Of a DNA stretch of 64,000 bases, positions 2,344 to 64,000 are shown piece by piece. Location: positions 7,530 through 71,529 of the forward strand of contig JBAZQX010000003.1 of assembly GCA_041644975.1 (NCBI GenBank), written 5' to 3'. A program made the position numbers and the translations under genes. Source of the stretch: Candidatus Doudnabacteria bacterium. Lineage in GTDB: Bacteria; Patescibacteriota; JAQUNI01. Below the pieces are notes generated by a model, which was not told the DNA's origin, did not search any database, and worked only from the letters and a program-made list of their open reading frames with translations. Position 1 is the stretch's first letter, and each line of letters starts with the position of its first letter.

Positions 2344-4950
2344 ATGATTCTTAGCAAAATCACCATCAGCGGTTTCAAATCTTTCGCTCATCGCACCAGC
2401 CTTTCTTTTGACCGCGGAATTACCGCCATTGTCGGACCAAACGGGTCAGGGAAATCCAATATTGTAGACGCTATCCGCTGGGTTTTGGGCGAACAGTCTA
2501 AAAAATCATTGCGCGGGAAAAAGGGCGATGATATTATTTTCGCCGGCTCAAGGACTAAAACTCCTTTGGGATTAGCCCAAGTAGCTTTAACCCTGGAAAA
2601 CACGACCCAAAAAATTCCCGTCAGCTCCGGAAAAGGGGAGGCGGTAAACCCCCCCACCCAAAATGCCACGGGCGTAAATTCTTGGACGAATGGTGCCGTT
2701 GGAACTTATAAAGCGAGAAGCAGACATTGCCATACCCTTTTGGGTGGGGGGGTGAACTTTTCCGAAATCACAATCAAAAGAAAATTCTATCGTAATGGCG
2801 AGGGAGAATATTTATTAAATAATAGCTCTGTGCGCTTAAAAGATATTGAAGAACTCTTAGCGCAGAGCAACATTAGCCAAAAAGGATATATTATCAGCCA
2901 AGGAATGATTGATCGCATAGTGATCTTGAGTCCCCAAGAAAAAAGAGAGCTTTTGGAGGAAGTTTCAGGAATTAAACCCTTAGAACTCAAAAGAATTGAG
3001 GCCCAGAAAAAGCTTGAGACAACGCGAGATAACCTTGTCCGCGTTCGCGCCCTTGTGGCGGAAATTGAGCCGCACTTGAAAAGGCTTGCCAAACAAGCGC
3101 GAGAGGCCAGAAATAAAGAAAAGATTACCCAAAAACTCCAGGAATTACAAAAAATCTGGTACACCAAAATCCGACAAAACCAAGAAAAGGCGCGCCAAAA
3201 AATAAGCAGAGAGAGGACAGAAATAGAGGAAATAATCAAAAATCTTGAAACCCAAATCCAAAATTTGCAAAAAATGGTGTCTATAATGGAGGTAAAACAA
3301 AAAAAAGACCAAGAAAACTGGCACCTCTGTTATCAAAACCAAGCGAAACTGGGGAAGCAAAAAAGCGTCCTAGCCGAAGAGCTTGCCACTCTCCGCGGCA
3401 CCCTAGTTGCCGAAAAACTCCGCCCGCGCGAGCAGCAGCAGGAAATTAACCGCGCGCATCTGGAAATTCAAAGAATTGACGCTGAAATTATCTCCTCCCA
3501 GAAACAAAACGCGATCCTCCAGAACAACCTAGAAAAAACCAAAAAAGAAATTGAAAAGCTGGAAAGGGAGGGGGAAAAATTAGAAGCCGAAGGAGTGGCG
3601 CGGCCGAACCCAACCACATTGCAAACCGCCTTGGAGGATTTACAAAATAGACAAAATATCTTTCTGGACAACTTTAAACATGGTCTTGATATTGCCTCTC
3701 TGAAATCCCAAGCGCAAGAAATTTTAAGGCTCATTCAACACTTAACAGAATGGCTGAAAACCGCGGCAACACTGCCTAAAGAACAAAACGGGAACCCAGC
3801 CTCTCGCGAGGGGCTGGGGAAGCGAAAATTAGAAATGTTAATGGAAAATAAAGGCAAGAAAGAAGAGCAAGCTCATTCCCTCCTTTTAAAATCGCGCACG
3901 GAAGAAGAAAAAATTCTTTTTTTGAACTTCCAAAAAAAGAGTTGGGAGGGAAAAATCAATCTCGGACGTAAACAGCCCGCCGCAGACGCTCAAAATACTG
4001 CCAAGCTCCAGCAAAAAATCACTCTACTTGGCAAAGAAATGCAAAAGAAGGAAGAAGAGACGCAAATTTTGGAAGAAAAAATCGCCCAACTTCTCAAATT
4101 GGATACAACGCGCAAAAACAAACTCTTTGCGCTGGAGCGCGAATCGCGCGAGAAACAAGACGCGATGGGGAAGCTCGGCCAAGAAAAAGCCCGCGTGGAG
4201 TTAGAAGAAGCGAAACTCAACTTGGAAAAACAGGGGCTTAATCGCGAAATTAAAAAAGAGTTAGAGGACAAGTGGGGTCGTATTGACATCGTCTCTAAAA
4301 AAGAATCTCCGCCTAATCTGGATTATGAACTCCAAATTAACAAACTGAAGAAGAAAATGCTCTCGGCAGGCAGTATTGACCCTGAAATCATTACTGAATA
4401 TGAACAAACACGCAGCCGGTGCGATTTCTTAAGCCAGCAAGCGGAAGACTTGGAAAAAGCCTCTTCAGGCTTAGATAAGCTCATTCATCGCCTAAGCCGC
4501 ATCATTCAAAAAAAATTCAGCATCGCTTTTAAAACCATCAACCTTGCTTTCAAAAAATATTTCAGGATGATTTTCGGCCGCGGCGGAAAAGCAAGCCTTA
4601 AAGCGGATGAGGAAGGAGGAATTGTAATTGAGGCTTGTCCGCCGGGAAAAAAATTAAAAAGCCTCTCCGTCCTTTCGGGTGGAGAAAAGGCTTTGGCTGG
4701 CTTGGCTTTAATTTTTGGGATTATTGAGCTCTCCAGACCCCCTTTCTGCATTTTAGATGAGGTGGACGCGGCGTTAGACGAAATAAATTCTCACCGCTTT
4801 GCCCGCATTTTAAAGATATTAGCCCGAGGAAGTCAATTTATCTGCGTCACCCATAACCGCGCGACAATGAAAGTGGCAAAGGCGCTGTATGGAGTGACGA
4901 TGAATGAAGAGGGGGTGTCAAGGTTGCTGTCTATGAAATTGGAGAAATAG
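2344..4950 (+). CDS. smc: Chromosome segregation protein SMC, carrying an in-frame insertion of about 40 aa from a palindromic GC-rich element at about nt 2640-2760
   Basis: N-terminal Walker A (GPNGSGKSNIVDAIRWVLGEQS), long coiled coils, and a C-terminal signature motif (LSGGEKALAGLAL) with Walker B (ILDEVDAALD). Confidence 0.9.
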   Translation: MILSKITISGFKSFAHRTSLSFDRGITAIVGPNGSGKSNIVDAIRWVLGEQSKKSLRGKKGDDIIFAGSRTKTPLGLAQVALTLENTTQKIPVSSGKGEAVNPPTQNATGVNSWTNGAVGTYKARSRHCHTLLGGGVNFSEITIKRKFYRNGEGEYLLNNSSVRLKDIEELLAQSNISQKGYIISQGMIDRIVILSPQEKRELLEEVSGIKPLELKRIEAQKKLETTRDNLVRVRALVAEIEPHLKRLAKQAREARNKEKITQKLQELQKIWYTKIRQNQEKARQKISRERTEIEEIIKNLETQIQNLQKMVSIMEVKQKKDQENWHLCYQNQAKLGKQKSVLAEELATLRGTLVAEKLRPREQQQEINRAHLEIQRIDAEIISSQKQNAILQNNLEKTKKEIEKLEREGEKLEAEGVARPNPTTLQTALEDLQNRQNIFLDNFKHGLDIASLKSQAQEILRLIQHLTEWLKTAATLPKEQNGNPASREGLGKRKLEMLMENKGKKEEQAHSLLLKSRTEEEKILFLNFQKKSWEGKINLGRKQPAADAQNTAKLQQKITLLGKEMQKKEEETQILEEKIAQLLKLDTTRKNKLFALERESREKQDAMGKLGQEKARVELEEAKLNLEKQGLNREIKKELEDKWGRIDIVSKKESPPNLDYELQINKLKKKMLSAGSIDPEIITEYEQTRSRCDFLSQQAEDLEKASSGLDKLIHRLSRIIQKKFSIAFKTINLAFKKYFRMIFGRGGKASLKADEEGGIVIEACPPGKKLKSLSVLSGGEKALAGLALIFGIIELSRPPFCILDEVDAALDEINSHRFARILKILARGSQFICVTHNRATMKVAKALYGVTMNEEGVSRLLSMKLEK
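2641..2762. repeat. MITE-like palindromic insertion inside smc, with inverted termini (aaacccccccacccaaaa / ttttgggtgggggggtg), kept in frame
   Basis: Inverted repeats of about 17-18 bp flank roughly 75 nt. The encoded segment (SSGKGEAVNPPTQNATGVNSWTNGAVGTYKARSRHCHTLLGGGV) lies where canonical SMC heads have no insert, between the LTLEN and EITIKR..GEGEYLLN motifs. Confidence 0.6.
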
Positions 4951-5100
4951 AAATAAAATTTCTAATTGTTCTAATTGTTCTAATTATTCTAAATAATGAC
5001 CAAATCCCAATAACCAATACCCAAAAGATTATTTGGGATTTAGACATTGGGGATTGGGATTTAGTTAGGTCAATTAGGTTAATTAGAATAATTAGAATAA
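4951..5100. repeat. AT-rich intergenic inverted repeat built from taattagaataatt-type words; a related copy lies at 27190-27400
   Basis: ctaattgttctaattattctaaataa ... ttaggtcaattaggttaattagaataattagaataatt. The arms are reverse complements of each other. Confidence 0.6.
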
Positions 5101-5168
5101 TTCCACTTGCTTTTTATATTATCTTGGGCTAAAATAGCACCATATACATTATTAACCATTAAATTCTT

Positions 5169-5822
5169 ATGTTAAGAATTCGTTTAACCCGCCGAGGGAA
5201 AAGGAACCGTCCATTTTTTAGAATTGTCGTTGCCGAAGCGCGAGCGCCAATCAAGGGGCGCTTTATTGAGGTGCTGGGGGGATTGGATCCCCTTGGAAAA
5301 AAAACGAGTCTCAAGGAAGAAAGAATAAAATATTGGCTCTCCTGCGGCGCCAAACCTTCGGATACGGTGCATAATCTTTTAGTGGGTCATAAAATTATTG
5401 CCGGCCCAAAAATTAAAAAGTTCGCCCACAGGAAGAAAAAAGGCGAGGAAGCGAGCAAGGAAGAAGCAAAGAAGGAAGAGGTAAACCCCATTAAAGAACA
5501 AGATTCTCCAACGGTCCACGTTGACGGTGGCGTTAAACCGCCGTCAGCTTTAAGCGATAATGACCACCAGGCGGCTTTCTCTAACGGGGTAAAAGCCGAA
5601 ACCGTAGAGGAAACACAGCAGAAGACCCGAAAAAGCGAAAAACCAGCTGAAGCTGAAAAAGAAAAGCAGGAAGACACGGCAACGCAAAAAGAAACCGCCG
5701 ATAAAGAGGAAAAAGCCGAGCCCGCGCAAAAGGCGCCCGAAGAAGAGCCTAAACCCGAAAAAGCGGAAAGCGCGACGACTTCCAAGGTTGAACCACTGCC
5801 CACAATAGAAACAAAGCCCTAA
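5169..5822 (+). CDS. rpsP: 30S ribosomal protein S16 with a long K/E/A-rich C-terminal extension
   Basis: The N-terminus (MLRIRLTRRGKRNRPFFRIVVAEARAPIKGRFIEVLG...KYWLSCGAKPSDTV) matches S16. Confidence 0.9.
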   Translation: MLRIRLTRRGKRNRPFFRIVVAEARAPIKGRFIEVLGGLDPLGKKTSLKEERIKYWLSCGAKPSDTVHNLLVGHKIIAGPKIKKFAHRKKKGEEASKEEAKKEEVNPIKEQDSPTVHVDGGVKPPSALSDNDHQAAFSNGVKAETVEETQQKTRKSEKPAEAEKEKQEDTATQKETADKEEKAEPAQKAPEEEPKPEKAESATTSKVEPLPTIETKP

Positions 5823-5984
5823 ATCCCGTTCTTCTTTTATCAAAATCTCCGAGAGGGATAACTTCGTCACAGCCAAATAGAGACCAGAGTCGTCTCTATT
5901 TTTGATTTGTTATATTTTCAATTTTTAATTTATCCGCTATAATAAAGAGGTGAAATAAATTATTTGAATTACGAAATTCAATAA

Positions 5985-6165
5985 CCCACCCCCGCCCGCC
6001 TCGCCTGAAGCCACGCCCGCCATGCTAGCCGCAAGGCGTTGCGGGCGGGCGAAGCGATGGCGGGCAGGCCAACCCTCCCTTGTCAGGGAGGGGGCACAAA
6101 TTTCCCCCCTGATAAGGGGGGCAAGGGGGGTTCCACGGTGCAAAGCCGTACATTTCATAATTCAA
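5985..6165. repeat. GC-rich palindromic repeat cluster combining the cgcctgaagc...gcgatggcgggcagg element with the caaatttcccccctgataagggggg...ttccacggtgcaaagccgtacat element (near-identical copy at 20338-20410)
   Basis: Sequence identity with 20338-20410, 21540-21590 and 41205-41245. Multiple perfect hairpins sit in an otherwise AT-rich genome. Confidence 0.7.
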
Positions 6166-6213
6166 AGGAAATTGAAATTTAGAACTTAACTAAACTTAAT
6201 AAAAACAAAAATT

Positions 6214-6537
6214 ATGAACCCTCAAATCTTGGAAAAGGATATTATTGAGCTTTTAGGTCTGGAGAATTTACCCGAAGACAAAAAAGCCGCGCTTCTCGCG
6301 AAAATGGCGGAGACTGTTCTGAACCGCATCAGCCTGCGCATTCTGGATCAGCTCTCTGACGCCGACCAGAAAAGATTCAACACATTGCTGAAGCAAAAGA
6401 CCTCTGACGAAAAAATAGACCAATTCTTGAAAAACAAAATTAAGAATCTGGACGAAATTCGGATGGCGGAAATTTTACGCTTCAAGCAGGAGTTAAACGA
6501 AGACGCAAAATATATCCAACAGAAATTAACCTCATAA
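6214..6537 (+). CDS. Hypothetical small acidic protein
   Basis: Clean ORF with an upstream AT-rich region. No recognisable domain. Confidence 0.5.
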   Translation: MNPQILEKDIIELLGLENLPEDKKAALLAKMAETVLNRISLRILDQLSDADQKRFNTLLKQKTSDEKIDQFLKNKIKNLDEIRMAEILRFKQELNEDAKYIQQKLTS

Positions 6538-6550
6538 AAAACAAAAATAT

Positions 6551-9500
6551 ATGGAGAAAAACACGGAAGGCGAGGGGAAAGAAAAGCCTTTAGAAAAAGA
6601 TAAGAAACGAGAAAAAAGAAGAGAGGTAAAGAATAAACACAAAAACAAATTAGAGCCCTTAGACCCCGACGAGGGGAAAAATATTCCGGAGAAAACTGAA
6701 AAAGAGAAAGGAATTACTCCCGATAAGGTGCGGGTAATTTTAGATAATTTAGGGCGAGAATTGCCTCCAGAAAAAAAGGAAATTACGGTGCGCTTTCATC
6801 CTGATCTCGCGGAAAATAATTTTCCGGATTTAATTGCCAAATTAGAAGCCAAGACGGGTACCAAAATCATTCCTCAATGGGATGATGGGGTGGACATTGA
6901 AAAGGGTTTTGCGATTGTGTCCGAAACAGTCCCTGAAAAGCCGGAAACGCCTTTAGAACCAGCGGAGCTCCTACCCCCTCCTGTCTCCGCCCTTAAGGCA
7001 GAGGGAGAGCCGCTCCCACCCCCTCCAAATACAGAGAAAGAACAAAAGACCCCAGACGGGAATACCCCTGAAAAAAGCGTTAGCGAACCAGAGGAAAAAG
7101 GCGAGGAAAAGCCGCAAGAAGAACCTCCTTCAGAAGAAAACAAACCCAAACCAGAAGAAACCAAGCCTGAACAGAAAATGGCAGAAAAAAGCGTTCCCCG
7201 CGAAGAAGAGAAAAAAGAAACAAAAGAAATCCCACCGCGGATTCAAGAAGTTTTAGACCGCTTAAACGCAGAGCTGGAAAAGCATAGCGATGCCGAAGAA
7301 GTTGATGTTACTTTTAATTATAAACTTGCAGAGAGCCTGCTTACTATCCCAGGCGCGGACTTTAGAAAGCTCCGACCTCAAAGCTACAAAAAAATCCAAA
7401 CAATCAACTATTGGAAAGAAAGAGAGAGCGTTTCTCCTCTTGGTTTTGTAATTGAAGAAATAAAAAAGAGGAAACCCCAAGAAAAAGAAGCAACTCCCGA
7501 AAAAAAACCTAAATCAGAAGAAACCGAGCCCGAACAGAAAGCAGAAGAAAAAAATGTCCCTCCAGAAGGAGAGAAAAAAGAAACAGAAATCCCTCAAAAT
7601 ATGGAGATGCTGATTGCACTCTTAGATTCAAAAATAGCCGAATTTCAAACAGTCCATCCGGAAACCAAAGACATTGACATTCTTTTTAGCGAGGAACTCA
7701 TAAAAAAACTGGGGATAAAATATGGCGATAAAAAACAACAAGCAATCTGGCAAAAGATTGACTCCATCAAAGAGAAAGGATTCAATGTGCTATATTTTGG
7801 AGGAGAGAAGATACCCCCAGAAGAAGCGGTAAGGATTGAGGAGGTTGTTCCGAAAAAAGCAGGGGCAGAGACCAAAACAAAAGAAAAAATAACCCCCGCG
7901 GAAAAAGGCGAGATAAAGGAAGAGCCTTCCCAGGAGAAAACCGCTCCCTCCCCCTCCACCTCCCCCTCGGGCAGGGGGAGTGCCGCTCCCAAAACAGAAA
8001 AACCGCGAGAACCAATAACCGCGGCGCGAGAGACAGAGACCCCAATTGAAATACACCCCTCTCCATCCCGCGTGTCAGAAGAGCGGCTTGCTGAAAAGCG
8101 CCAAGAGTATTTAGAAGCCAAAAGACTGCGCGGTAAATTTATTAGCCGCGGAGAATTTAAAGGCAAAGAGGGAGAAGCGAAACTTGCTCAAATCGGTGAA
8201 GAATATAGCAAAATGCGCGCTGAATATATTCGCGGTAAAGCGACAGAAGTATTGAAAGAACAGAAGCTGCCCGCGACGGAATTGAAAACAAAGATTGTGG
8301 AGAAACTTCTGGAAGAATATAACAAAGAAGAAGGGGAACGGGAAAAATTGATCGAGGGCAGGGAAAAAGGCTTAGGGCAGAGGTTTAAAGAATGGTGGCG
8401 CCGTCATCCTAAAGCGCGAATGCTCGTTGGTTATGGCTTAACCGGCGCTTCGGTAGGGAGTATGCTTTCAGGACAGCTCTGGCTGACTCCTTGGTTTATT
8501 GGCGCCCGAGCCGCTTTTGCCGGAACGGGCGCGGCTCTCGGCACAGAAGGGATGTTATCCCGCTATTCTAAAACCTTAGGCGAAAAAGGGCTTGTGAACG
8601 AACTAGTTAAATTCAGCAAAGAAGAAAAGGCTAAACTCAAAAAAATCAAAGACAAAGGAGAACAGGAAAAAGCGCGCCAAAAAATGATTAACGATAACGT
8701 TGCCAAAGTCTCGCCCGAGAATTTAGCGCGCGAAATGGCGCGCGTCAAAACCCTGCAAGAGAAAAAAGGGGTGAAACTAGAAAATATAGGACCATATGGC
8801 GCGGTGCTTTTGGCTTTAAGAGCGCGGGAACAAGAACTTTTAAAAAAACGGATGACGGAGGCAATGGAAAAAGGAGAAAAAACTAAAGAAGATTTACTTT
8901 TTGAAGCTATAAACTCCGGCTTGGAAAAAGAGGCAAGAGAAATGGACAAAAATGTGGAAGGGGCGGGAGAGGCGGAAAGAAAAAAGGCAATCAAAAGATG
9001 GGTCTTCAGCAGTAGCGCTGGAGCAATCACAGCCGGACTCACCGCTTGGTGGGGATTCTCTAGGCTCGGAGAAATTTCAGGCAAGGGAAAAATAGCAGGG
9101 GGCGCGGCTCACGCAAAAACGGCTCTGGGTCTGCCAGCGCCAGAAGGGTTGGCAACGGATTTTGAGGTCATTGCCGGCAAAGGCGACTCGGTCTGGAAAA
9201 TGGCAAAACGCGCTTTGGCGGAAAAATATGGCAGCCGCTTTACCAATCTTGATGAAGCGCGCCGCACTTATGTCATTGACGCGATAAAAGATAAAATCGC
9301 GAAAAACCCCGCTCGTTTTGGTCTAACTGATATAGACAAGGTAAAGATTGGTCAGAAAATAGATTTTGGCGGATTAATAAAAAACAACAGTATAATGGAA
9401 GGGATCTTTGGCAAGGCGGGACGGCTAACAGGAGAACAAGTGGAAAATATTTTGAATAATAATGAGACAGTGCAAGAATTCCACCGTCTCCATCCCGGAA

Positions 9501-10060
9501 CTCATTTAGATAGCGAGAAAATAGATCAAATCTTGAGCCCTAATAGAGGAGATGAGGTCTTGGAGGCAAAACCCGCAGCGCCGCGGGGAGACATCAGCGC
9601 GCCAGAAATTACTCCGGAGGAAACCCCGAGCTTGGAAGAAAGCGCGATTCCTACTGAAACTGAAGCTGCAAAAATAGAAGCGCCGCAGACAGAAGAGACT
9701 CCAAGTCCAAAGACGGAAACCCCCTCTCCTACTCCAGAGGCCGCTCCCGAGGGAGATATATCCGAAGCAATGATTCAAGAAATTCCCGACTGGACTCCGG
9801 AAAAGATTGCCAAGACTGCTCTGCCCTTGATTCAAGAAAATTCAAAACTGAAAACGGTCAAAGGAATTTTAGAACGTTATCTAACTAACCTAAAAAGCGG
9901 CGAGATTTTTTTACCCGAGCAAACGGAAGCCAGCGCCGCTATTAAAGAAATAACCAAAAGAACCAAAGAGCTCGGGGAGAGCGCGGGGGAAAGATACGAG
10001 AAAACCCTGTTGGAAAACACCAAACTTTTCATAGGCACTGCCGCGATGGGGAGAGAGTAG
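6551..10060 (+). CDS. Large hypothetical E/K/P-rich repetitive protein with central transmembrane segments. It contains internal tandem repeats (KPKPEETKPEQK...) and an embedded copy of the GC-rich palindrome ctccccctcgggcagggggag, encoding PSPSTSPSGRGS
   Basis: 1169-aa ORF with low-complexity repeats and hydrophobic stretches around aa 610-660. The same 35-nt GC palindrome occurs at 10205-10240 and 18345-18380. Confidence 0.6.
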   Translation: MEKNTEGEGKEKPLEKDKKREKRREVKNKHKNKLEPLDPDEGKNIPEKTEKEKGITPDKVRVILDNLGRELPPEKKEITVRFHPDLAENNFPDLIAKLEAKTGTKIIPQWDDGVDIEKGFAIVSETVPEKPETPLEPAELLPPPVSALKAEGEPLPPPPNTEKEQKTPDGNTPEKSVSEPEEKGEEKPQEEPPSEENKPKPEETKPEQKMAEKSVPREEEKKETKEIPPRIQEVLDRLNAELEKHSDAEEVDVTFNYKLAESLLTIPGADFRKLRPQSYKKIQTINYWKERESVSPLGFVIEEIKKRKPQEKEATPEKKPKSEETEPEQKAEEKNVPPEGEKKETEIPQNMEMLIALLDSKIAEFQTVHPETKDIDILFSEELIKKLGIKYGDKKQQAIWQKIDSIKEKGFNVLYFGGEKIPPEEAVRIEEVVPKKAGAETKTKEKITPAEKGEIKEEPSQEKTAPSPSTSPSGRGSAAPKTEKPREPITAARETETPIEIHPSPSRVSEERLAEKRQEYLEAKRLRGKFISRGEFKGKEGEAKLAQIGEEYSKMRAEYIRGKATEVLKEQKLPATELKTKIVEKLLEEYNKEEGEREKLIEGREKGLGQRFKEWWRRHPKARMLVGYGLTGASVGSMLSGQLWLTPWFIGARAAFAGTGAALGTEGMLSRYSKTLGEKGLVNELVKFSKEEKAKLKKIKDKGEQEKARQKMINDNVAKVSPENLAREMARVKTLQEKKGVKLENIGPYGAVLLALRAREQELLKKRMTEAMEKGEKTKEDLLFEAINSGLEKEAREMDKNVEGAGEAERKKAIKRWVFSSSAGAITAGLTAWWGFSRLGEISGKGKIAGGAAHAKTALGLPAPEGLATDFEVIAGKGDSVWKMAKRALAEKYGSRFTNLDEARRTYVIDAIKDKIAKNPARFGLTDIDKVKIGQKIDFGGLIKNNSIMEGIFGKAGRLTGEQVENILNNNETVQEFHRLHPGTHLDSEKIDQILSPNRGDEVLEAKPAAPRGDISAPEITPEETPSLEESAIPTETEAAKIEAPQTEETPSPKTETPSPTPEAAPEGDISEAMIQEIPDWTPEKIAKTALPLIQENSKLKTVKGILERYLTNLKSGEIFLPEQTEASAAIKEITKRTKELGESAGERYEKTLLENTKLFIGTAAMGRE

Positions 10061-10290
10061 ACCACCCTTCAGAACCTCCCCCCCCACCCCTCCTTGGAAA
10101 GGAGGGGATAATCAGAACCCCCTCTTCGCTCCCCCTCGGAAAGTGGGAGCGTATTTCACCTCCCGGGAGGCGAGGAGGGGTCTAAATAAAGATCATCCAA
10201 GCTCCCACCCCCTCCGCCTCCCCCTCGGGCAGGGGGAGTGAGAATCTTCCTCCCCTTTCCAAGGAGGGGTGGGGGGGGTTCTGAAAATAC
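10061..10290. repeat. GC-rich palindromic repeat cluster containing ctccccctcgggcagggggagtgagaatcttcctcccct
   Basis: Shared with 7945-7990, 12880-12930 and 18340-18420. Several 7-9 bp G/C stems are present. Confidence 0.7.
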
Positions 10291-14639: not shown

Positions 14640-14812
14640 GGCTTTTTTATAAAACTCTTCACCCTTCACCTTTGGCTAAAGGTTAGAGGGTTGACCCTTC
14701 ACCCTTAGCTAAGGGTGAAGGGTTGACAGATTTTTAAAACCTGCTAAAATCATTTTTTAGGTAAAAAGCCTGAAAATCCTTGCCCTTCACCTTTTCTTCA
14801 CCTTTTTTAAAA
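14640..14812. repeat. cccttcacc/ggtgaaggg hairpin repeat cluster (agggttgacccttcaccc ttagctaa gggtgaagggttgac) upstream of the GIY-YIG gene
   Basis: Perfect 10-bp palindromic stems. The same family occurs at 15066-15235 and 21184-21271. Confidence 0.7.
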
Positions 14813-14818
14813 TGAAAC

Positions 14819-15061
14819 ATGTTCTATGTGTATGTTTTGAAAAGTAAGAAAGATAAAAAGTTTTATATTGGTTTCACACCAGACTTAAGACTGCGTCTTC
14901 AAAAACACAATAACGGTAAAGTAACATCTACCTCCTATAGGCGCCCTCTAGAATTAATCTATTATGAAGCTTACAAAGATCAAAAAACTGCGATAAGGAG
15001 AGAAAAGCAGTTAAAAAGCGGTAAGGCACATATGGCTTTAAAAAAATGGCTGACCCAATAA
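14819..15061 (+). CDS. Small standalone GIY-YIG nuclease family protein
   Basis: The MFYVYVLKSKKDKKFYIGFT...L..R...H opening is the GIY-YIG motif. The protein is about 80 aa and is flanked on both sides by cccttcacc repeats. Confidence 0.85.
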   Translation: MFYVYVLKSKKDKKFYIGFTPDLRLRLQKHNNGKVTSTSYRRPLELIYYEAYKDQKTAIRREKQLKSGKAHMALKKWLTQ

Positions 15062-15140
15062 TAACGATGGATAAAACCCTTCACCTTTAGTATAAAAGGT
15101 TAGAGGGTTGACCCTTCACCTTTATGGTGAAGGATGAAGG

Positions 15141-15229
15141 GGTTGACCCTTCACCTTTAGCCAAGGTCTTCACCTTTCATAAAGGATTCATCTATAGCTA
15201 TAGGTGAAACCTACTAAAGGTGAAGGGTG
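15141..15229. repeat. 88-bp repeat. It is the left inverted copy of a pair; the right copy at 21184-21271 is about 93% identical in reverse complement
   Basis: ggttgacccttcacctttagccaaggtcttcacctttcataaaggattcatctatagctataggtgaaacc... matches the reverse complement of 21184-21271. Confidence 0.7.
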
Positions 15230-15237
15230 TTTTCTAG

Positions 15238-16119
15238 TCAATAGCTTCGCATCACTTCTAGGGGTGTTTTCATATTTAAAGCCATATGCGGTCGCTCTGA
15301 ATTATAGTAATGCAAGTACTTCGGAATTTCCTTGCGCCAAGACTTTAGACTTCTTGGGATACGCTCTATACACTCTTCTTGAATAGTGCGGTTAAATCTT
15401 TCAAGATGTCCGTTATCTGTTGGCGTTCTCACTCTGCTATGGCGATGCGATAAACCGGAACTTTGAATTTGTTTTGTAAACCATTTAGAGAATTCAGAAC
15501 CATGATCCGACTGGAGCATCTTGATTCTAAATGGTGCCAATTGGCGAGCTGAATAGATGAAGTTTACGCTTCTGCCAGCACTAATCCTTTCTGTTGGATA
15601 AACATAACTCCATCTGGAACAGACATCTAAGAGAGTATACAGATAAAGTCTATTCTGGCTTACTCCATCCCAAACCGTGTCAATTTGCACTAAGATACCA
15701 GGTTTTTCAGCCAGAGGACGCTTGGGATATTGATGCCACTTTTTCCATTTAGAATAACGGGAACAGTTGAATCTTCTTAAAACTCTCTTAACACTAGAAA
15801 GGCTTATGATATATCCATCCTTTATTAAAAGGTGATGCAATACTTCTGCACAACGCTGATAATGCTGCCGGTAATCCAATATTTTAATAATCATTTCCGA
15901 GGATAATTCCTTGGGATGATGATGGGGACGTGAGCTTTCCGTGGGAATAGTATTCCTTCTCGTCATTCTTGCTTTAATGACCCAGCGCGTGATCGTACTC
16001 TGGTTAAAACCAGTATGGCGCGCCACCTCTCTTGTGCTCCACTTTTGGTTCAAAACCAGTTTTGCTGCTTGCATTCGCAAACGTGGTAAATGGGGGTTTG
16101 TTGTATATGGCATATACAT
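15238..16119 (-). CDS. IS481-family (IS3-like) DDE transposase / integrase core domain protein with an N-terminal HTH
   Basis: HTH (STREVARHTGFNQSTITRWV) plus an rve core with QIDTVWDG...LDVCSRW...SDHGSEF...RTPTDNGHLERFNRTIQEE...YNSERPHMAL. Confidence 0.85.
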   Translation of the reverse strand: MYMPYTTNPHLPRLRMQAAKLVLNQKWSTREVARHTGFNQSTITRWVIKARMTRRNTIPTESSRPHHHPKELSSEMIIKILDYRQHYQRCAEVLHHLLIKDGYIISLSSVKRVLRRFNCSRYSKWKKWHQYPKRPLAEKPGILVQIDTVWDGVSQNRLYLYTLLDVCSRWSYVYPTERISAGRSVNFIYSARQLAPFRIKMLQSDHGSEFSKWFTKQIQSSGLSHRHSRVRTPTDNGHLERFNRTIQEECIERIPRSLKSWRKEIPKYLHYYNSERPHMALNMKTPLEVMRSY

Positions 16120-18097: not shown

Positions 18098-18177
18098 CTT
18101 TCAGTAAAAGTGGATGTGCAACTATAAGTATTTACAAGGGTCTGCTTTCGTAGACCCTTTTTTATTTCTTCTCAAAA
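18098..18177 (+). ncRNA. Candidate small RNA / structured repeat, copy 2 (see 17318-17400)
   Basis: gttgcatacgcactttcagtaaaagtggatgtgcaactataagtatttacaagggtctgctttcgtagaccctttttt; gggtctgctttcgtagaccc + T-tract. Confidence 0.4.
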
Positions 18178-18740
18178 CCACAATTCGCATGTTTACCCCG
18201 TTTAGAGAACGAAATTCTCTAACGGGGTTTAACCAGCCATCCTTCACCTCTCCTTCGTATGAAGCTTCAGACGAGCAACACAAGGTCCACTACGCTTCCA
18301 AGGCTCCGCTGAAAGCGAAGGCGGGCAGGGGGAGTGTCACTCCCACCCCCTCCACCTCCCCCTCGGGCAGGGGGAGTGAAAATCACCCTCCCCTTGACGC
18401 GCGGGAGGGTGGGGAGGGGTCTAACATCACCTGACAAAAATTTAATTTAAATTGACAAATTCCTCAAAAAGCAGCAAGATAAAACTACCTAGCCCAAGGG
18501 TAAATCCAGCCCGGCTAAAAGAACAAACAACAACTCTTCGAGTCTGAAAATCTGAACGAACTATTTTCATAAACAAGCTGTCGCTTGTTCTTTTAAAACT
18601 TTATTTCGGATTTCGGCTGTGATGCCAAAATCTTAGATGGCTAATGGGTTGTATAAGCTAAGCCCAAACAAAGGAGAAAGACGGGTATTGGCAAGGTTTT
18701 TTTATTGTTGTTTGAATAGAATGAAGAGGAGGTAGAAAAA

Positions 18741-21183: not shown

Positions 21184-21271
21184 TCAACCCTTCACCTTTA
21201 GGTTTCACCTATAGCTATAGATGAATCCTTTATGAAAGGTGAAGACCTTAGCAAAAGGTGAAGGGTCAACC
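21184..21271. repeat. Right inverted copy of the 88-bp repeat at 15141-15229
   Basis: Reverse complement matches 15141-15229. Confidence 0.7.
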
Positions 21272-21289: not shown

Positions 21290-21640
21290 CCCGAAGCGGC
21301 TGACGCCGTGCCAAGGCAGGGCGGACTTCTAACGGGGTGATAGTTCTGTAGAATCTCATGGGTTTTAAGAGGGGTCTAAAATTCTCCCCTGACAAGGGGA
21401 GATTAAAGAGGGGTTTTTAACAATCAACCCCCCGAACCCCCCTTGTCAGGGGGGTAGTAAAACTTGTTGGCTCCATAGTCCAAGACGCAGGCCAGCGCCA
21501 AAACCCTTGGTTTGCCTCGCCTACCGGGAGGCAGGCATTCTGGCCTGCCCGCCATCGCTTCGCTTCAGGCGAGGCGGGCGGGCTCCATAGGGCTCGCGCC
21601 ACTATGGAGCCAACGGGCTTTCTCTAACGGGGTAAATACC
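21290..21640. repeat. Composite GC-rich repeat region: ccccgttaga...tctaacgggg hairpins, the ttggctccatagt...ggagccaa element, and the cgcttcaggcgaggcgggcgg element
   Basis: The hairpin family ccccgttagagaa/ttctctaacgggg recurs at 18198-18235, 20138-20178, 20935-21010, 24785-24855, 35440-35505 and 58415-58485. The ttggctccatag element also occurs at 31868-31905 and 54560-54690. Confidence 0.65.
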
Positions 21641-54513: not shown

Positions 54514-54739
54514 CTTTCGCTTCGCTCAAATTTAAAATTTAAAGTGCCCGCCCTTTGTTGGCTCCATAGTGGCGTTAGCCCTGTGGAGCCTAAATGCAAG
54601 CCATGAAGAGAAAATATTATTAGACTTTAATCCTGTTTCGCATTCAAGGCTCCACAGCCCTCCCTTCGGTCGGGACTATGGAGCCAACAGACGGCTCGTT
54701 CAGGCGAGGCGGGCGCGGCCTGCCCGCTCAATAGCCTTT

Positions 54740-57277: not shown

Positions 57278-57397
57278 ATACGGCATCACCCGCCTGCCAG
57301 AGCGCGACCACTTAGCTTGAGTTGGTAGAGCATTTGCTTTATTCACCCGCCTAAATTTTTTGGTGTGTAACTCAAGTCTTACCCCCACACCTTTCGG

Positions 57398-57470
57398 GGA
57401 CGCATAGCTCAGTTGGTAGAGCGCCTCGTTTACACCGAGGAGGTCATAGGTCCGAGTCCTATTGCGTCCA
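57398..57470 (+). tRNA. tRNA-Val (anticodon UAC), precisely enclosed by a 14-bp inverted repeat (acccccacaccttt / aaaggtgtgggggt)
   Basis: Acceptor GGACGCA/UGCGUCC, anticodon stem CCUCG/CGAGG, loop UUUACAC. The T-loop UCCGAGU is atypical because it has C55. Preceded by a degraded tRNA-like fragment (57318-57345: agcttgagttggtagagcatttgc). Confidence 0.65.
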
Positions 57471-57612
57471 CAAAGGTGTGGGGGTAAAGCTGGAGCACCT
57501 AGAAGGCCTGAAGTTTAAATCCTACATTACCCACAGAGTAAATTAAAAATGAAAAGTAAAAAATGTAAAATTGAATTTTTAATTTTTCATTTTTAATTTT
57601 AAATTGTTTTGG

Positions 57613-57930
57613 GCGGCTAGCCCCTCACCCAGAAAGTTTCTATGTATTATGTTTATTTAATCAGAAGCAAAAGAGACAATAGTTTATATATTGGATATAC
57701 AGACAACTTAAAAAGGAGGGTGGAAGAACATAATACTAAAAAGAGTAAATTCACAAAGGCTAAAACTCCCTATGGACTTATTTATTATGAAGCTTATAAA
57801 CACAAATCTGACGCTAAATATAGAGAACACAATTTGAAAAGATTTGCCCAAGCTTATACCCAGTTACAGAGAAGAATCAAGAATAGTTTAAATGATTCTT
57901 AAACTTTCTGGGTGAAGGGCGGCTAGCTCA
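57613..57930 (+). mobile_element. GIY-YIG cassette inserted at the 5' end of tRNA-Ile: an 11-bp duplication (gggcggctagc) of the tRNA 5' end, plus 18-bp inverted termini (ccctcacccagaaagttt / aaactttctgggtgaaggg) flanking the ORF
   Basis: Direct repeat gggcggctagc at 57613-57623 and 57917-57927. The TIRs sit immediately inside it. Confidence 0.6.
57642..57902 (+). CDS. Small standalone GIY-YIG nuclease family protein (paralog of 14819-15061)
   Basis: MYYVYLIRSKRDNSLYIGYTDNLKRRVEEHN. Confidence 0.85.
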   Translation: MYYVYLIRSKRDNSLYIGYTDNLKRRVEEHNTKKSKFTKAKTPYGLIYYEAYKHKSDAKYREHNLKRFAQAYTQLQRRIKNSLNDS

Positions 57931-60253: not shown

Positions 60254-60704
60254 GAAAAATAGCTAAAAATTAAATTACTTTAGTTATGTTATATTTCATT
60301 TGCTTTATACTTCAGCGAAGCGGATAAAATCGCATACTTTGTTTATTGCTTTGGGGAAACCGCTTCGTCATCAGAGCGGTTTTTTGATTGGTAAAATTTC
60401 AAGAGAGAAGCCAAACTTTTTACTTCACCTCTATTCAAAAAGTTCCCTTTTCTCTTGAATGAAGCCGTTCACGAACAGCTTCATAAATGAAAGAACCTTG
60501 ACAATTGAATAACCCATTAAGATAGATATGAATTTATCTAATGGGGTCAAAAATGATTAGAAAACAAAGGGCGTATGGTGGATGCCTTGACTTAAAGAGA
60601 CGATGAAGGACGTAGCAGGCTGCGATAAGCCTCGGGGAGCTGCCAAGCAAGCTTTGATCCGAGGATTTCCGAATGGGGAAACCCAGCGCGGCAAACCCGC
60701 GCTA

Positions 60705-60833
60705 CCCCTCACCTAAAAAGGATTTTTGTTAAAAAATAGGTATTTTTTCTTATTTTAAAAGGTTATAAAAAATAAGATGGATACTGATTTTTAGCGAATC
60801 GCAAAGCGATTCGTATCCTTTTTAGGTGAGGGG
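60705..60833 (+). mobile_element. 23S rRNA intervening sequence 1, MITE-like, with perfect 18-bp terminal inverted repeats cccctcacctaaaaagga / tcctttttaggtgagggg
   Basis: AT-rich core of about 130 nt with a gaatcgcaaagcgattc hairpin. Inserted in the 5' domain at a helix-9-like position. Paralogous to IVS2 and IVS3. Confidence 0.7.
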
Positions 60834-60944
60834 AGACAACCCGGGGAACTGAAACATCTTAGTACCCGGAGGAAAAGAAAAAAAATCCGCGCTTTGCGCG
60901 GAACATTCCCTGAGTAGTGGCGAGCGAAAGGGGAAGAGCCTAAA

Positions 60945-61074
60945 CCCCCCACCTAGAAAAGATTTTTATTAAAAAAAGATATTTTTCTCGTTTTAAAAGA
61001 TTATAAAAAATGAGATGGATATTGATTTTTAGCGAATCGCTTACGCGATTCGTATCTTTTCTAGGTGGGGGGGG
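60945..61074 (+). mobile_element. 23S rRNA intervening sequence 2 (TIR ccccccacctagaaaaga / tcttttctaggtgggggg)
   Basis: Paralog of IVS1 with the same internal ttttagcgaatcgc..gcgattcgtatc core. Confidence 0.7.
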
Positions 61075-61272
61075 TTATAAGACAAATACGCTATCAGGGC
61101 AACCTGGTACAGAGTTTAACAAAATGCAACTTGCCTAGCAGAAGGCGCCTGGAACGGCCCACCAAAGAAGGTAAAAGTCCTGTACGCGAAAAGCGTTGCA
61201 TCTCTGATGTATCTGTTTCTTGAGTACTACACCACCAGGGAAATGGTGTAGGAAGTCGGGAGTACTACTAAA

Positions 61273-61404
61273 CCCCTCACCTATAAAGGATTTCAGTTAA
61301 AAAAATATTTTATTTAGATTGATCTAAGGGTCAGATAAAATAGATTAAAAAATAATTAGTTTTAGCGAATTGCCAAGCAATTCGTATCCTTTATTGGTGG
61401 GGGG
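61273..61404 (+). mobile_element. 23S rRNA intervening sequence 3 (TIR cccctcacctataaagga / tcctttattggtgggggg)
   Basis: Paralog of IVS1 and IVS2. Confidence 0.65.
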
Positions 61405-61431
61405 CTCCCAAGGCTAAATACTCTTTAAGAT

Positions 61432-61468
<37 letters not shown>

Positions 61469-62338
61469 CATCCCGGTGAGGGAGATGAAATAGTATCTGA
61501 AACCATACGCTTACAAAGAGTCAGAGCCGTCCTTCGCTTTTTGCTTCGCAAAAAGCTTCGGAACGGTAAACCCTTCAGAAATTAAAAGAGGGCTTGCCAT
61601 TCCGTAGCTCGTGAGCGAAGTAATGAGCGAAGGATGGTGATGGCGTGCTTTTTGTAGAACGAACCAACGAGTTAGCTGTGTATTGCTCGTATAAGTCCGC
61701 TTAGCGGACGTATGCAAAGTGAAAGCGAGCGTTAATAGCGCGTTTTAATTCATTAGGCAAATAGAATTCTTCTATTTGCCTCAATAATTAAAGGCAGTAC
61801 ACACTAGACCCGAAGCCAGACGAGCTAGCCTTGGTCAGGGTGAACTTTGGGTAACACCAAAGGGAAGCCCGCACCCATTGGTCGTGTAAAGCCATGGGAT
61901 GAACTGAGGCTAGAGGAGAAATTCCAATCGAGTCTGGTGATAGCTGGTTCTCCCCGAAATAGCTTTAGGGCTAGCGTCCTATTTACAAATTTGGAGGTAG
62001 AGCACTGGATGGAGCAGGATGGGATTTCTCCCTACTTGTCCCAACTAAACTCCGAATTCCAAACTTTTATGATAGGGCAGTCAGAACGGCGCGGATAAGC
62101 GCGTCGCTCAAAAGGGAAACAGCCCAGATTCTTATCTAAGGTCCCTAAGTTCAAGTTAAGTGGTAAAGGAAGTGAGATTACAGAGACAATTAGGAGGTTG
62201 GCTTAGAAGCAGCCATCCTTTAAAGAAAGCGTAACAGCTCACTAATCGATCGTGATCTTGCGCCGAAAATGTAACGGGGCTCAAACTTGACACCGAAGAT
62301 AGAGGCCAGAGACGTACCTCACTGCGTTCGGTACGGGC

Positions 62339-62487
62339 AAATTTTTAATTTTTAATTTTTAATTTTTAATCAATTTTCAATGATTTAATGCTTAAATTTT
62401 TAAACTCAATAGAATAAAGAGTTTGAAAATTAAGCCATTAAGAAATTGGGATTTGTTTGAAAATTAGAAATTGAAAATTAGAAATTG
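62339..62487 (+). other. AT-rich insertion in the 23S rRNA at a helix-45-like position (aatttttaatttttaa ... gaaaattagaaattgaaaattagaaatt inverted repeat)
   Basis: Interrupts the region homologous to E. coli about 1170-1185. The arms are complementary. Confidence 0.6.
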
Positions 62488-63039
62488 CCGGCCGAGCGTA
62501 GCGAGGTGCGGCTTTGGCGGTAGGGGAGCATTCTATATCCAGTAAAGCCAGTCTGTAAGGACTGGTGGAGGATATAGAAGAGAGAATGTTGGTATGAGTA
62601 ACCTAAAGTCCGGTGAGAAACCGGACCACCGTAAGTCTAAGGTTTCCTGGGCAACGTTAATCAACCCAGGGTTAGTCGATCCTAAGTCGCAAAAAACGAC
62701 GATGGAAGAGTAGGTTAATATTCCTACACTACTATTAATTTTGACGGAGGGACGCCACAGGATAGATTTCGTGTCCTAATGGTTTAGGCATTGGTGATCC
62801 GTAGTCGGAAGAAACAGGCAAATCCGTTTCTTCAATTTCAAACGGCGAAGATTATCAAAAGGTTTATTCCGCAAGGAATAGATCAATGAAATTGATTCCA
62901 GTGGCCAAGAAAAACTCCTAAAATTAGATTAATAGTACTCGTACCGTAAACCAACACAGGTAGACGGGTAGAGGATACCAAGGTGTTCGGGTGATCCTTA
63001 GCTAAGGAATTCGGCAAAACAACTAGGTGTAAGTTCGCA

Positions 63040-63290
63040 AGATACCTTGCCTCGGAACATTTCGCTTTCGCTTCGTGTTTCTTAAGAAATCCCAAAAATC
63101 AAGCGCCAAGCAACAAACAAATTACAAACAGAAAAATTCCAAGCTTAAAAGGGTTTGGAATTTAGGAAATTGAAATTTGAGATTTGTTTAAAAATTGTCT
63201 CGCTATGCGAGATCTGGCGAAGCCAGAAAAATTATGATTTGGGATTTGGAACACGAAGCGCTAGCGGAGTGCGACCGGGGTCGCAGTTAA
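63040..63290 (+). other. Expansion segment in 23S rRNA domain IV (about 250 nt where E. coli has about 100 nt)
   Basis: Lies between GGAAUUCGGCAAAACAACUAGG and GACUGUUUACCAAAAACACAGG. Contains aaatccc...gggattt-type complementarity. Confidence 0.5.
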
Positions 63291-63447
63291 AGATCCAGGA
63301 CGACTGTTTACCAAAAACACAGGTCCCTGCAAAGCCGATAAGGCAAAGTATAGGGGCTGACGCTTGGCCAGTGTCGGAACGTTAAGAGCGGGGGTGAAAG
63401 CTCTCGCTTTAAGCGCCGATGAACGCCGGCCGTAACTATAACGGTCC

Positions 63448-64000
63448 TATGGTAATTTCGTTGCCATAGTAAAATCTGGCTATATGCTGGAACATCTGGA
63501 GAATCTAGTGCTACTATGGTATAATTGAACCATAGATTAATTATCTATAAAATTATGCCAGGTAAAAAAGCATCTAGTGTGCTAAATAAAATAGCGCCAG
63601 ATAATCAGCAGGAAAGACTAATAACTATTGGTTGGATTATTGGATTTACTGATGGTGAAGGGTGCTTTACGGTTAGTTTAATTAAAAATCCGACCACAAG
63701 AACAGGACACCAAATATTTCCTGAATTTGTTGTCACGCAAGGTGAAAAGAGTATAAGTGTATTGAAAAAAATGCAAAAATTCTTCAATTGTGGAAAGATA
63801 TTCGTGAATCGAAGACATGATAATCATAAAGAAAATTTACACAGATATTGCGTGAGAAGCATAAAAGACCTCAATGAAAAAATCATTCCATTCTTCATTG
63901 AAAATGAGTTGAGAACAGATAAAAAAAGAGATTTCAAGAATTTTGCAATTATTCTGAATATGATGAAAAAGAAAAAACACTTATCTAAAAAAGGCTGCAA
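63448..64000 (+). mobile_element. Group I intron inserted in the 23S rRNA after GGUCCUA (E. coli position about 1917), encoding a LAGLIDADG homing endonuclease; truncated by the window
   Basis: Conserved 23S sequence stops at ...aacggtccta. The ORF follows within the intron. Confidence 0.7.
63555..64000 (+). CDS. LAGLIDADG-family homing endonuclease (intron-encoded), 3'-partial
   Basis: MPGKKASSVLNKIAPDNQQERLITIGWIIGFTDGEGCFTV... The LAGLIDADG-type motif is IGFTDGEGCF. The frame is open to the end of the window. Confidence 0.75.
   Translation, partial: MPGKKASSVLNKIAPDNQQERLITIGWIIGFTDGEGCFTVSLIKNPTTRTGHQIFPEFVVTQGEKSISVLKKMQKFFNCGKIFVNRRHDNHKENLHRYCVRSIKDLNEKIIPFFIENELRTDKKRDFKNFAIILNMMKKKKHLSKKGC

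Follow-up and report, generated by a model that had tools for sequence, protein, structure and literature searches.

A hairpin-bounded GIY-YIG nuclease cassette at the 5' end of tRNA-Ile in a Candidatus Doudnabacteria genome, with likely gene-less relatives in the 23S rRNA

How does a nuclease gene of 86 codons come to stand between a tRNA gene and a second copy of the first eleven nucleotides of that same tRNA? The question is raised by positions 57611-57927 of a 64 kb stretch from one genome of Candidatus Doudnabacteria (Patescibacteria, also known as the candidate phyla radiation, CPR). We call this stretch the window, and all window-wide counts given below cover these 64 kb. At this locus a small GIY-YIG open reading frame (ORF), enclosed by an inverted repeat, ends exactly where an intact tRNA-Ile gene begins. 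Based on our data we propose, with a probability of about 0.7, that the locus is one copy of a widespread family of hairpin-bounded selfish cassettes, which sit in or at stable-RNA genes of Patescibacteria and have derivatives resembling MITEs (miniature transposable elements with inverted repeats). The parts of the locus are these.

57611-57621, + strand: upstream direct-repeat copy of tRNA-Ile nucleotides 1-11, GGGCGGCTAGC (exact 11-nt repeat)
57620-57639, + strand: left arm of the cassette inverted repeat, GCCCCTCACCCAGAAAGTTT (inverted-repeat search)
57642-57902, + strand: GIY-YIG nuclease ORF, 86 aa, catalytic domain only (ORF and Pfam)
57901-57920, + strand: right arm of the cassette inverted repeat; it covers tRNA nucleotides 1-4 and overlaps the stop codon
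57917-57992, + strand: tRNA-Ile(gat), the intact target gene; the cassette end is exactly tRNA +1

The sequence GGGCGGCTAGC occurs exactly at 57611-57621 and at 57917-57927, the second copy being nucleotides 1-11 of tRNA-Ile(gat), and to judge by this match the upstream copy reads as a target-site duplication. The two arms (57620-57639 and 57901-57920) are 20 nt long and 95% complementary, and the order at the locus is repeat, left arm, 2 nt, ATG through to a stop codon that lies within the right arm, and tRNA +1. The end CCCCTCAC of the left arm is common to at least 13 related cassettes. The original prediction, made from the letters of the window, had described a GIY-YIG ORF lying between inverted termini and an exact 11-bp duplication of the tRNA-Ile 5' end; all of these were located, and the other features it listed exist where it placed them or within a few bases. 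No self-splicing intron model matched the window, and in a scan around the cassette promoter and terminator sites were no more frequent than in shuffled sequence. Just upstream, tRNA-Val(tac) lies in the loop of another inverted repeat, ACCCCCACACCTTT / AAAGGTGTGGGGGT (window 57371-57495, + strand), of which contig L088 of a relative has the right arm only and L090 neither arm. In other genomes many GIY-YIG cassettes have ends of this type, and here it looks as if the tRNA were cargo.

The encoded protein, 100% identical to one from an NCBI metagenome-assembled genome of Candidatus Doudnabacteria, belongs to the GIY-YIG family (Pfam PF01541, E=6.9e-16), and residues Y5, Y16, G18, R26, H30, N31 and E62, the catalytic ones among them, are invariant in 26 homologues; identity among homologues is 60-86% over many lineages. 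Its closest solved relatives are UPF0213 (1zg2, E=1.2e-11) and then SLX1 (E about 2e-4 to 5e-3), and its match to TIGR01453 is weak, scoring 20.4, well under the cutoff of 56. GIY-YIG is the classic homing-endonuclease fold, and SLX1 acts with SLX4 on branched DNA. The DNA-binding domain required of a homing endonuclease of the I-TevI or Seg type is absent from the protein, which is a bare catalytic domain. The nuclease is the sole ORF of the cassette, in which Pfam detects no DDE, HUH/Y1 or serine/tyrosine recombinase. Transport by phage is unsupported, as a search of 2.9 million viral contigs for GIY-YIG relatives returned a single distant match.

Whether the cassette moves was judged from genomic context. 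Exact-sequence look-ups with the window's GIY-YIG protein and with that of the neighbouring RNHCP gene gave no match, and the context was reached through homologues. The RNHCP homologues are P0121, 87% identical (L088), and P0122, 73% identical (L090/91/92/94). The contigs L088 and L090-94 keep the order tRNA_bind - tRNA-Val - tRNA-Ile - RNHCP and lack the GIY-YIG gene, so that the tRNA-Ile locus displays the presence/absence polymorphism at a conserved target that marks homing elements. In L088 an AT-rich spacer (...aaaatgtaaaattgaattttt...aattttaaattgtttt) is followed at once by the 5' end of a tRNA-Ile; the window shares this spacer, which leads there into the 11-nt repeat and then the cassette. 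The closest cassette, that of P0002 (86% identical in amino acids and 81% in nucleotides across the cassette, with the same arms, CCCCTCACCCAGAAAGTTT; L081-85), follows ftsH and stands directly upstream of tRNA-Met(cat), and the repeat upstream of it, GGGTCCGTAGC, is the 5' end of its own tRNA-Met. Two P0002 contigs share source samples with the empty tRNA-Ile loci. A further cassette, P0004 (76% amino-acid identity), lies at tRNA-Ala(ggc) in the same arrangement as at tRNA-Met. Presence and absence at orthologous loci, together with different targets that each carry a matched repeat, indicate on comparison of these genomes that the cassette is mobile, as the original prediction had it: relatives exist without the gene, and the nearest copy sits at another tRNA.

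The relatives also carry a tRNA-Ile arrangement of their own. In L090 (5041-5290, which is positions 164-413 of the intergenic region 4878-5360) a tRNA-Ile of the window type is interrupted in its anticodon loop by an insert of ~190 nt, bounded by an inverted repeat, that carries a second, intact tRNA-Ile, and L088 (1137-1322) retains the inner tRNA-Ile and a 3' remnant of the outer one. By its sequence the L088 locus looks like a recombined derivative of the L090 arrangement. The tRNA-bearing insert of L090 resembles a self-compensating insertion into a tRNA gene.

To place the window's copy in a wider frame one genome per species was scanned, which gave 80 loci encoding relatives of the 86-aa ORF; these are the best matches to the query and no random sample. 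A co-oriented tRNA gene lies within a few bases of the ORF stop in 24 of the 80, where 0.34 would be expected from local tRNA density, and the partner tRNAs are those for Ala, Val, Ile, Lys, Ser, Pro, Tyr and Glu. At 18 loci an exact copy of the tRNA's own first 7-11 nt stands upstream of the left arm, and others have such a copy with one mismatch. The right junction at tRNA sites is always +1, and the repeat, matched to the tRNA, is 7 or 10-11 bp long; lengths of 7 and 10 nt correspond to the points at which the acceptor strand stops and the D stem begins. The boundaries of the duplication are blurred because the G-run of the arm overlaps the tRNA 5' end. The tRNAs beside cassettes are still called standard by ARAGORN, and the upstream repeats match exactly. 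At L007 (1820-2440) two identical cassettes stand in tandem with a 302-nt period, followed by tRNA-Ala, and each is preceded by the 10-nt GGGCCAGTAG, the 5' end of the downstream tRNA-Ala; L003 has a junction of the same kind.

By Rfam, another ten cassettes are situated within genes for 16S rRNA, 23S rRNA or RNase P RNA. Those of L028, L043, L056 and L057 are within the 16S rRNA between ...CAAGTCGA and GGCGAACGGG, a site that we take to be helix 6; that of L059 is within the 23S rRNA, presumably in helix 25; and those of L021, L035, L044, L055 and L061 are within RNase P RNA. As these cassettes sit inside mature-RNA genes elsewhere, cassettes of this type do form rRNA intervening sequences. 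Orientation agrees with the adjoining stable-RNA gene in 34 of 35 cases (24 at tRNA genes, 10 in rRNA or RNase P RNA genes), L074 being the exception.

The inverted repeat is as regular a feature as the target. With a flanking inverted-repeat score of >=12 as the threshold, a tight repeat encloses 69 of 83 cassettes and none of 203 control positions. The arms, 12-30 nt long, have conserved outer ends, namely GCCCCTCAC, (A)CCCCCACAC, CCCCGCACC, CCCCCCACCAC and ATGCCACAC, which follow the consensus CCCC-N-CAC ... GTG-N-GGGG. The inner stems comprise 40 distinct 7-mers among 46 scorable ones, each complementary to its own partner arm. A conserved stem base joined to a covarying distal stem points to selection for pairing and to recognition of the stem base by a protein. 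In most copies the ATG follows the left arm by 0-10 nt, and at the other side stop codon and right arm often overlap.

Some sources of the repeats were considered and set aside. Chance or low complexity is ruled out by the motif counts, the shuffles, the control positions and the expectation for tRNA adjacency. An att duplication of the integrase type is rejected, as a recombinase is absent and the repeat varies with the target tRNA, and simple ectopic homing is rejected as the source of the matched repeats, as it would be expected to leave chimeric acceptor stems, and the tRNAs that ARAGORN called beside cassettes were still recognisable as standard ones.

Copies without the ORF occur as well. 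In L054, a metagenome-assembled genome of Saccharibacteria, three elements within 8 kb share their arms through 21 nt, CCCCTCACTTGGAAA-G/C-AATGG. The one at tRNA-Val carries a GIY-YIG ORF; the one at tRNA-Ile retains an ORF that is decayed and truncated, and directly before it stand 9 nt identical to the 5' end of its tRNA; and the one at tRNA-Cys is ORF-less, ~130 nt long, with an upstream repeat that is partial only. ORF-less copies with the ends of an ORF-bearing element, the mark of a MITE family, are thus found together with that element in one genome. At L015 and L016 a 24-nt ORF-less hairpin with a repeat stands at tRNA-Ala, and the flanks of cassettes hold in total 13 extra copies of the cassette's own 13-nt arm, where by our estimate chance would give ~0.5.

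Are there such copies in the window itself? The original prediction had named three paralogous elements in the 23S rRNA, and all three are where it put them, the second ending at 61072, not 61074. We refer to them as intervening sequences (IVS) 1 to 3.

60555-63544: 23S rRNA
60705-60833, + strand: IVS-1, ORF-less palindromic element in a 23S hairpin loop, model ~165-168; z=-10.5
60945-61072, + strand: IVS-2, ORF-less palindromic element, close paralogue of IVS-1, in a 23S hairpin loop, model ~283-289; z=-12.7
61273-61404, + strand: IVS-3, ORF-less palindromic element in a 23S hairpin loop, model ~454-457

Each of the three (128-132 nt) occupies a hairpin loop of the Rfam large-subunit (LSU) rRNA model. 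The terminal arms of IVS-1 and IVS-2 are perfect over 19 nt and those of IVS-3 form a 19-position stem with one mismatch; IVS-1 and IVS-2 are ~87% identical over their full length, and IVS-3 shares the ends and the 3' hairpin. The elements fold as a terminal stem bearing two hairpins, with z-scores from -7.6 to -12.7, and 12 of 34 consensus pairs show compensatory changes. In L089 (6627-6762) and L204 an orthologue of IVS-3 with the same ends stands at the same site, and the IVS-1 and IVS-2 sites of L089 are held by two other, unrelated palindromic inserts. The arms of the 23S elements match the cassette at 13-15 of the first 16 bases, CCCCTCACC-Y-A-N-AAAG. The motif CCCYYCACC occurs 27 times in the window against 1.08 expected, a count reached in none of 100 shuffles, and the end motif CYCACCYANAAAG, with at most one mismatch, 12 times against 1.14 expected; 10 of these 12 matches are the two ends of the cassette, of the three 23S elements and of an element in smc described below. 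A scan of metagenomes used the arm pattern CCYCACCTANAAARGAT, which is too permissive; among the matches listed, L204, the IVS-3 orthologue, is the only one with both arms, and the single-arm matches are probably chance.

From this likeness of the ends it is most likely that the three 23S elements are ORF-less derivatives of the cassette. We rate their membership of the family as likely but not proven, because the interiors do not match, a target duplication is not seen and the C/G run is in part native helix. The similarity of termini claimed by the original prediction therefore survives alignment for 13-15 of 16 arm bases and does not extend to the interiors, and the target duplications at the 23S copies, when looked for, were not visible. 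Its notion of an autonomous element with a MITE family holds in L054, with its shared 21-nt arms; in the window it does not reach beyond those arm bases, the 23S interiors being unrelated. Comparison with relatives, proposed as a search for empty sites, gave such sites at the tRNA-Ile loci (L088, L090-94) and different occupants at the IVS-1 and IVS-2 sites, and found that the closest relatives, too, have IVS-3 and the smc insert.

The window 23S rRNA holds other inserts too. An AT-rich family of ~200 nt (ends ...cgtacctcactgcgttcggtacg...) occurs once, at 62313-62512, and in L089 it has three copies at other 23S helices (5943-6153, 6200-6424 and 6895-7121). A further, unrelated insert lies at model ~583 (window ~61530-61625).

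The element in smc is a candidate of another kind.

2623-2751, + strand: in-frame insertion of 43-44 aa in the SMC head, aa 94-136; possible family member

The element proper spans 102 nt (2650-2751), with 14-nt arms CCCCCCACCCAAAA / TTTTGGGTGGGGGG at 2650-2663 and 2738-2751, and lies in frame and stop-free within the ORF 2344-4950. The SMC of B. subtilis is continuous at the place where the window SMC head carries the insert; six other Patescibacteria SMCs also lack it, and P0218, the 93%-identical relative, has it. No other coding copy with arms of the smc type was found in the 64 kb. The palindromic element announced for smc is thus a real in-frame insertion with arms at 2650-2751, linked to the family through its arms only, and it is a possible derivative of the cassette, less certain than the 23S elements on the same kind of comparison. 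The window SMC protein is only 868 aa long; a typical bacterial SMC has ~1,180 aa.

A second GIY-YIG gene in the window stands among hairpin repeats.

14662-14791: CCCTTCACC hairpin repeats upstream of the second GIY-YIG gene
14819-15061, + strand: second GIY-YIG ORF, 80 aa (Pfam E=2.8e-17; 41% identical to the first)
15077-15227: nested CCCTTCACC hairpins downstream of the second GIY-YIG gene
21188-21265: dispersed intergenic copy of the CCCTTCACC-ended element

Within the downstream hairpins, 15147-15227 forms an 81-nt unit with 21188-21265 as its paralogue, and the hairpin sub-family of this gene is CCCTTCACCTTTAG. That the second gene lies amid hairpin repeats was correctly foreseen; the idea that it forms one family with the first is weaker, the CCCTTCACC hairpins being a separate sub-family. 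In a tblastn search of the window for remnants of cassettes only these two intact GIY-YIG genes were found. The hairpin cluster of the second gene adjoins a gene for an IS481-like transposase with an rve domain (15238-16119, - strand).

The window is rich in other repeats. A region of ~4.2 kb (31832-36001) has no ORF of 90 aa or more and no match in Rfam, and contains diverged direct repeats of ~575-680 nt and long inverted repeats (31954-32053 against 33987-34128). A G+C-rich hairpin CCCTCCACCTCCCCCTCGGGCAGGGGGAGTG occurs inside two ORFs, at 7952-7985 (ORF 6551-10060) and 18348-18380 (ORF 18114-18434), and these hairpins may be further in-frame inserts. A palindromic element of 200 nt with ends CCCCCCCCACCCCTCCTTGGAAAGGAGGGG lies between convergent ORFs at 10078-10278, and an inverted-repeat family TTGGCTCCATAGT / ACTATGGAGCCAAC, with arms ~105-120 nt apart, is found at 21459-21621 and 54550-54695, one copy standing between tRNA-Arg and tRNA-Lys.

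How might such a unit live in genes that the cell cannot spare? The cassette is a unit of ~300 bp in which an inverted repeat encloses one stand-alone GIY-YIG ORF of the UPF0213/SLX1 type. Most often it ends exactly at tRNA +1 and has upstream of it 7-11 bp that repeat the beginning of that tRNA; the tips of variable helices in 16S, 23S and RNase P RNA are further sites. We suggest that it would probably be transcribed as part of the host RNA precursor, as the cassette leaves no room for a promoter and the spacer before it is shared with L088. The long stem could fold the insert out of the host RNA, and its removal by RNase P at +1 of tRNA leaders, or by RNase III in rRNA helices, would keep the host RNA functional; an insert removed from the precursor in this way would be harmless. 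The nuclease itself probably recognises the conserved base of the stem in folded DNA and cuts structured targets, after which host repair or replication would complete the insertion, and ORF-less derivatives with the same arms would persist as MITE-like or REP-like elements (REP, repetitive extragenic palindromic).

Several observations weigh against this proposal. To our knowledge the GIY-YIG domain only cuts DNA and has no strand-transfer activity, which leaves a duplication of 7-11 bp unexplained; no duplication is visible at the 16S, 23S, RNase P RNA and smc sites, and the repeat at tRNA sites might have an origin other than target duplication. The empty tRNA-Ile sites of L088 and L090 are not pristine, since the tRNA-Ile allele is another one and an insert carrying a tRNA is nested there, and the tandem copies of L007 could stem from unequal recombination or from assembly. 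As to the window's gene-less elements, the interiors of the 23S and smc elements align locally with the cassette no better than shuffles do, the smc interior is barely structured (z=-2.8) and ~13 terminal bases link it with the family, the C-run/G-run at the 23S sites falls in part on native helix in the alignment, and the closest relatives have kept both IVS-3 and the smc insert, with no presence/absence signal at short range. The unmatched interiors, the lack of a visible target duplication at these sites, the alignment of the CCCC/GGGG run with the native helix of the Rfam model at the first two 23S sites and the vertical conservation of IVS-3 and the smc insert would also suit a reading in which the 23S elements and the smc insert are unrelated to the cassette, namely ordinary lineage-specific rRNA expansions or intervening sequences and a palindromic in-frame insertion. 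Their common stem base, G+C-rich and adjoined by A+T-rich sequence, would then have arisen by convergence or because native helices were extended. The window genome and L089 moreover hold several other palindromic insert families at the same helices. We nevertheless consider such an independent origin somewhat unlikely, as the match extends past the C-run into the variable stem, which is otherwise specific to each copy (40 distinct 7-mers of 46), the end motif is enriched ~10- to 25-fold in the window, GIY-YIG cassettes of the same end type sit inside 23S, 16S and RNase P RNA helices elsewhere, and L054 has ORF-less derivatives with the same arms.

A more conservative account of the cassette itself would make it a free-standing homing gene that spreads only by cutting cassette-free alleles, with arms that serve as a stem for RNA processing or insulation and with ORF-less copies that are decayed and immobile. 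It would draw on the homing fold and the weak TIGR01453 match, on targets that are highly conserved genes, as homing predicts, on arms that covary without keeping their sequence, as is more fitting for an RNA stem than for a site bound by a transposase, and on the decayed ORF kept by the L054 copy at tRNA-Ile; the GIY-YIG ORFs of CPR rRNA have also been treated as members of the homing-endonuclease family (PMC11270868). Simple homing would not be expected, however, to yield near-identical cassettes at Ile and Met tRNAs that each have their own matched repeat, nor two copies ~87% identical at different 23S helices (IVS-1 and IVS-2); the 86-aa protein lacks a DNA-binding domain and is related to UPF0213 and SLX1 and not to I-TevI, and the outer 8-9 nt of the arms are kept across phylum-level lineages, which suggests recognition by a protein. 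We therefore think homing alone an improbable explanation. Far less probable still is that nothing here is mobile, the stems being host signals for RNase III or RNase P and the GIY-YIG protein a domesticated host factor in tRNA leaders. The conservation of the protein (60-86% identity across many lineages), the co-orientation with stable-RNA genes (34 of 35) and the bracketing of the window tRNA-Val(tac) by a stem of the same type would suit a host function, but presence and absence at orthologous loci, different tRNA partners in close relatives, direct repeats matched to the target, tandem and decayed copies, and several copies per genome at unrelated sites would not.

Beyond the selfish, hairpin-bounded cassette family that we prefer lies a stronger version of it, which we put forward tentatively and give less than an even chance: a prokaryotic class of transposable element, not recognised before, whose only encoded protein, an SLX1/UPF0213-like GIY-YIG nuclease, recognises the base of its own hairpin together with structured DNA targets and mobilises itself and cognate ORF-less hairpins. 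The structured targets would be the foot of the tRNA acceptor stem with the D stem, and the helix tips of rRNA and RNase P RNA. Such an element would be a GIY-YIG analogue of the REP-associated tyrosine transposase (RAYT) and its REP doublets (REPINs), and would supply CPR bacteria generally with intervening sequences in rRNA, inserts in tRNA leaders and in-frame inserts in proteins.

CPR bacteria are known for the insertions that their rRNA genes bear. Our data tie the short, intron-unrelated insertions of CPR rRNA and their GIY-YIG ORFs to one recognisable element type, which is far commoner at tRNA leaders than in rRNA and which leaves gene-less descendants. In small genomes it is a candidate for the origin of intervening sequences in rRNA, of RNase P RNAs that are enlarged and of odd leaders on tRNAs. 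If the nuclease is responsible for the movement, the cassette would be among the smallest self-contained mobile units known, ~300 bp with one protein of 84-86 aa, and its enzyme, as a nuclease that is guided by structure and cuts tRNA genes at defined sites, would be a possible tool. For annotation, cassettes and partial copies of tRNA 5' ends are to be expected at tRNA genes of Patescibacteria.

Among known systems the closest in design are the REP/RAYT (REPIN) systems of proteobacteria, reportedly described by Nunvar in 2010, by Bertels and Rainey in 2011 and by Ton-Hoang in 2012. Like these, the cassette consists of a small nuclease gene flanked by its own hairpin repeat in inverted orientation, with gene-less copies dispersed in the genome, and probably depends on recognition of a folded stem with a conserved base; the second gene of the window likewise has a CCCTTCACC hairpin sub-family of its own with a dispersed copy (21188-21265). 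Unlike these, it encodes a GIY-YIG nuclease and not an HUH/Y1 (IS200-like) transposase, Pfam finding domains of the GIY-YIG type only, its copy numbers look low, and it lies in or at stable-RNA genes with a 7-11 bp repeat at tRNA sites, whereas REP elements occupy generic extragenic sites. With the GIY-YIG homing endonucleases I-TevI and T4 Seg it shares the catalytic fold, residence in conserved, essential RNA genes and presence/absence polymorphism, and differs from them in having inverted arms and a direct repeat, in having neither a DNA-binding domain nor a self-splicing intron, in its ORF-less derivatives with the same arms and in the tRNA leader as its commonest site. The minimal GIY-YIG domain is that of UPF0213 (BH0048, EF2693) and SLX1; we know of no mobile context for UPF0213 proteins and of no report of a cassette context for UPF0213 or SLX1.

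In full-text searches of the literature we found no description of inverted arms, the tRNA-leader site, a target-matched repeat, RNase P RNA sites or gene-less derivatives. GIY-YIG ORFs in CPR rRNA insertions have been noted, judged not to be intron-borne and placed 'outside the context of homing' (PMC11270868), in a text that contains neither the term inverted repeat nor the term tRNA. The rRNA-borne L028, L043, L056, L057 and L059 share with those insertions a GIY-YIG ORF in a non-intron rRNA insertion, and are probably among the ORFs counted there; the ORFs of the window differ in lying outside rRNA, one beside a tRNA gene and the other amid intergenic hairpins. The window's 23S elements resemble the RNase III-type intervening sequences of Salmonella, Leptospira, Campylobacter and Coxiella, which are stem-loops with near-perfect stems at variable helix tips, sporadic in occurrence, suspected of horizontal movement and in some cases endowed with a small ORF. 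Papers on such sequences include PMC4990558 and PMC2801512. Unlike the classical ones, the window's elements are three paralogues at three helices of one gene, with ends that match a nuclease cassette.

MITEs whose transcripts are cut by RNase III, such as the Correia elements of Neisseria, have in common with the cassette terminal inverted repeats, a target duplication (in the cassette, the repeat at tRNA sites) and a hairpin predicted in the transcript. The cassette differs in having no DDE partner, in arms that covary and in targets that are tRNA +1 or the tips of RNA helices. Reviews of MITEs include PMC10969869 and PMC2229807. The smc insert, for its part, is palindrome-ended, a multiple of three in length and free of stops, and the conserved protein carries it in a region at the surface. 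In these respects it is like the Rickettsia palindromic elements, which Ogata is said to have found in frame in protein genes in 2000; unlike them it has one protein-coding copy in 64 kb and an interior that is neither palindromic nor strongly structured (z=-2.8). The cassette works like a REP/RAYT pair or a MITE family, gives rise to intervening sequences of the classical sort and lacks the defining enzyme of each such family, and there is a substantial chance that the family to which it belongs is a new class of element.

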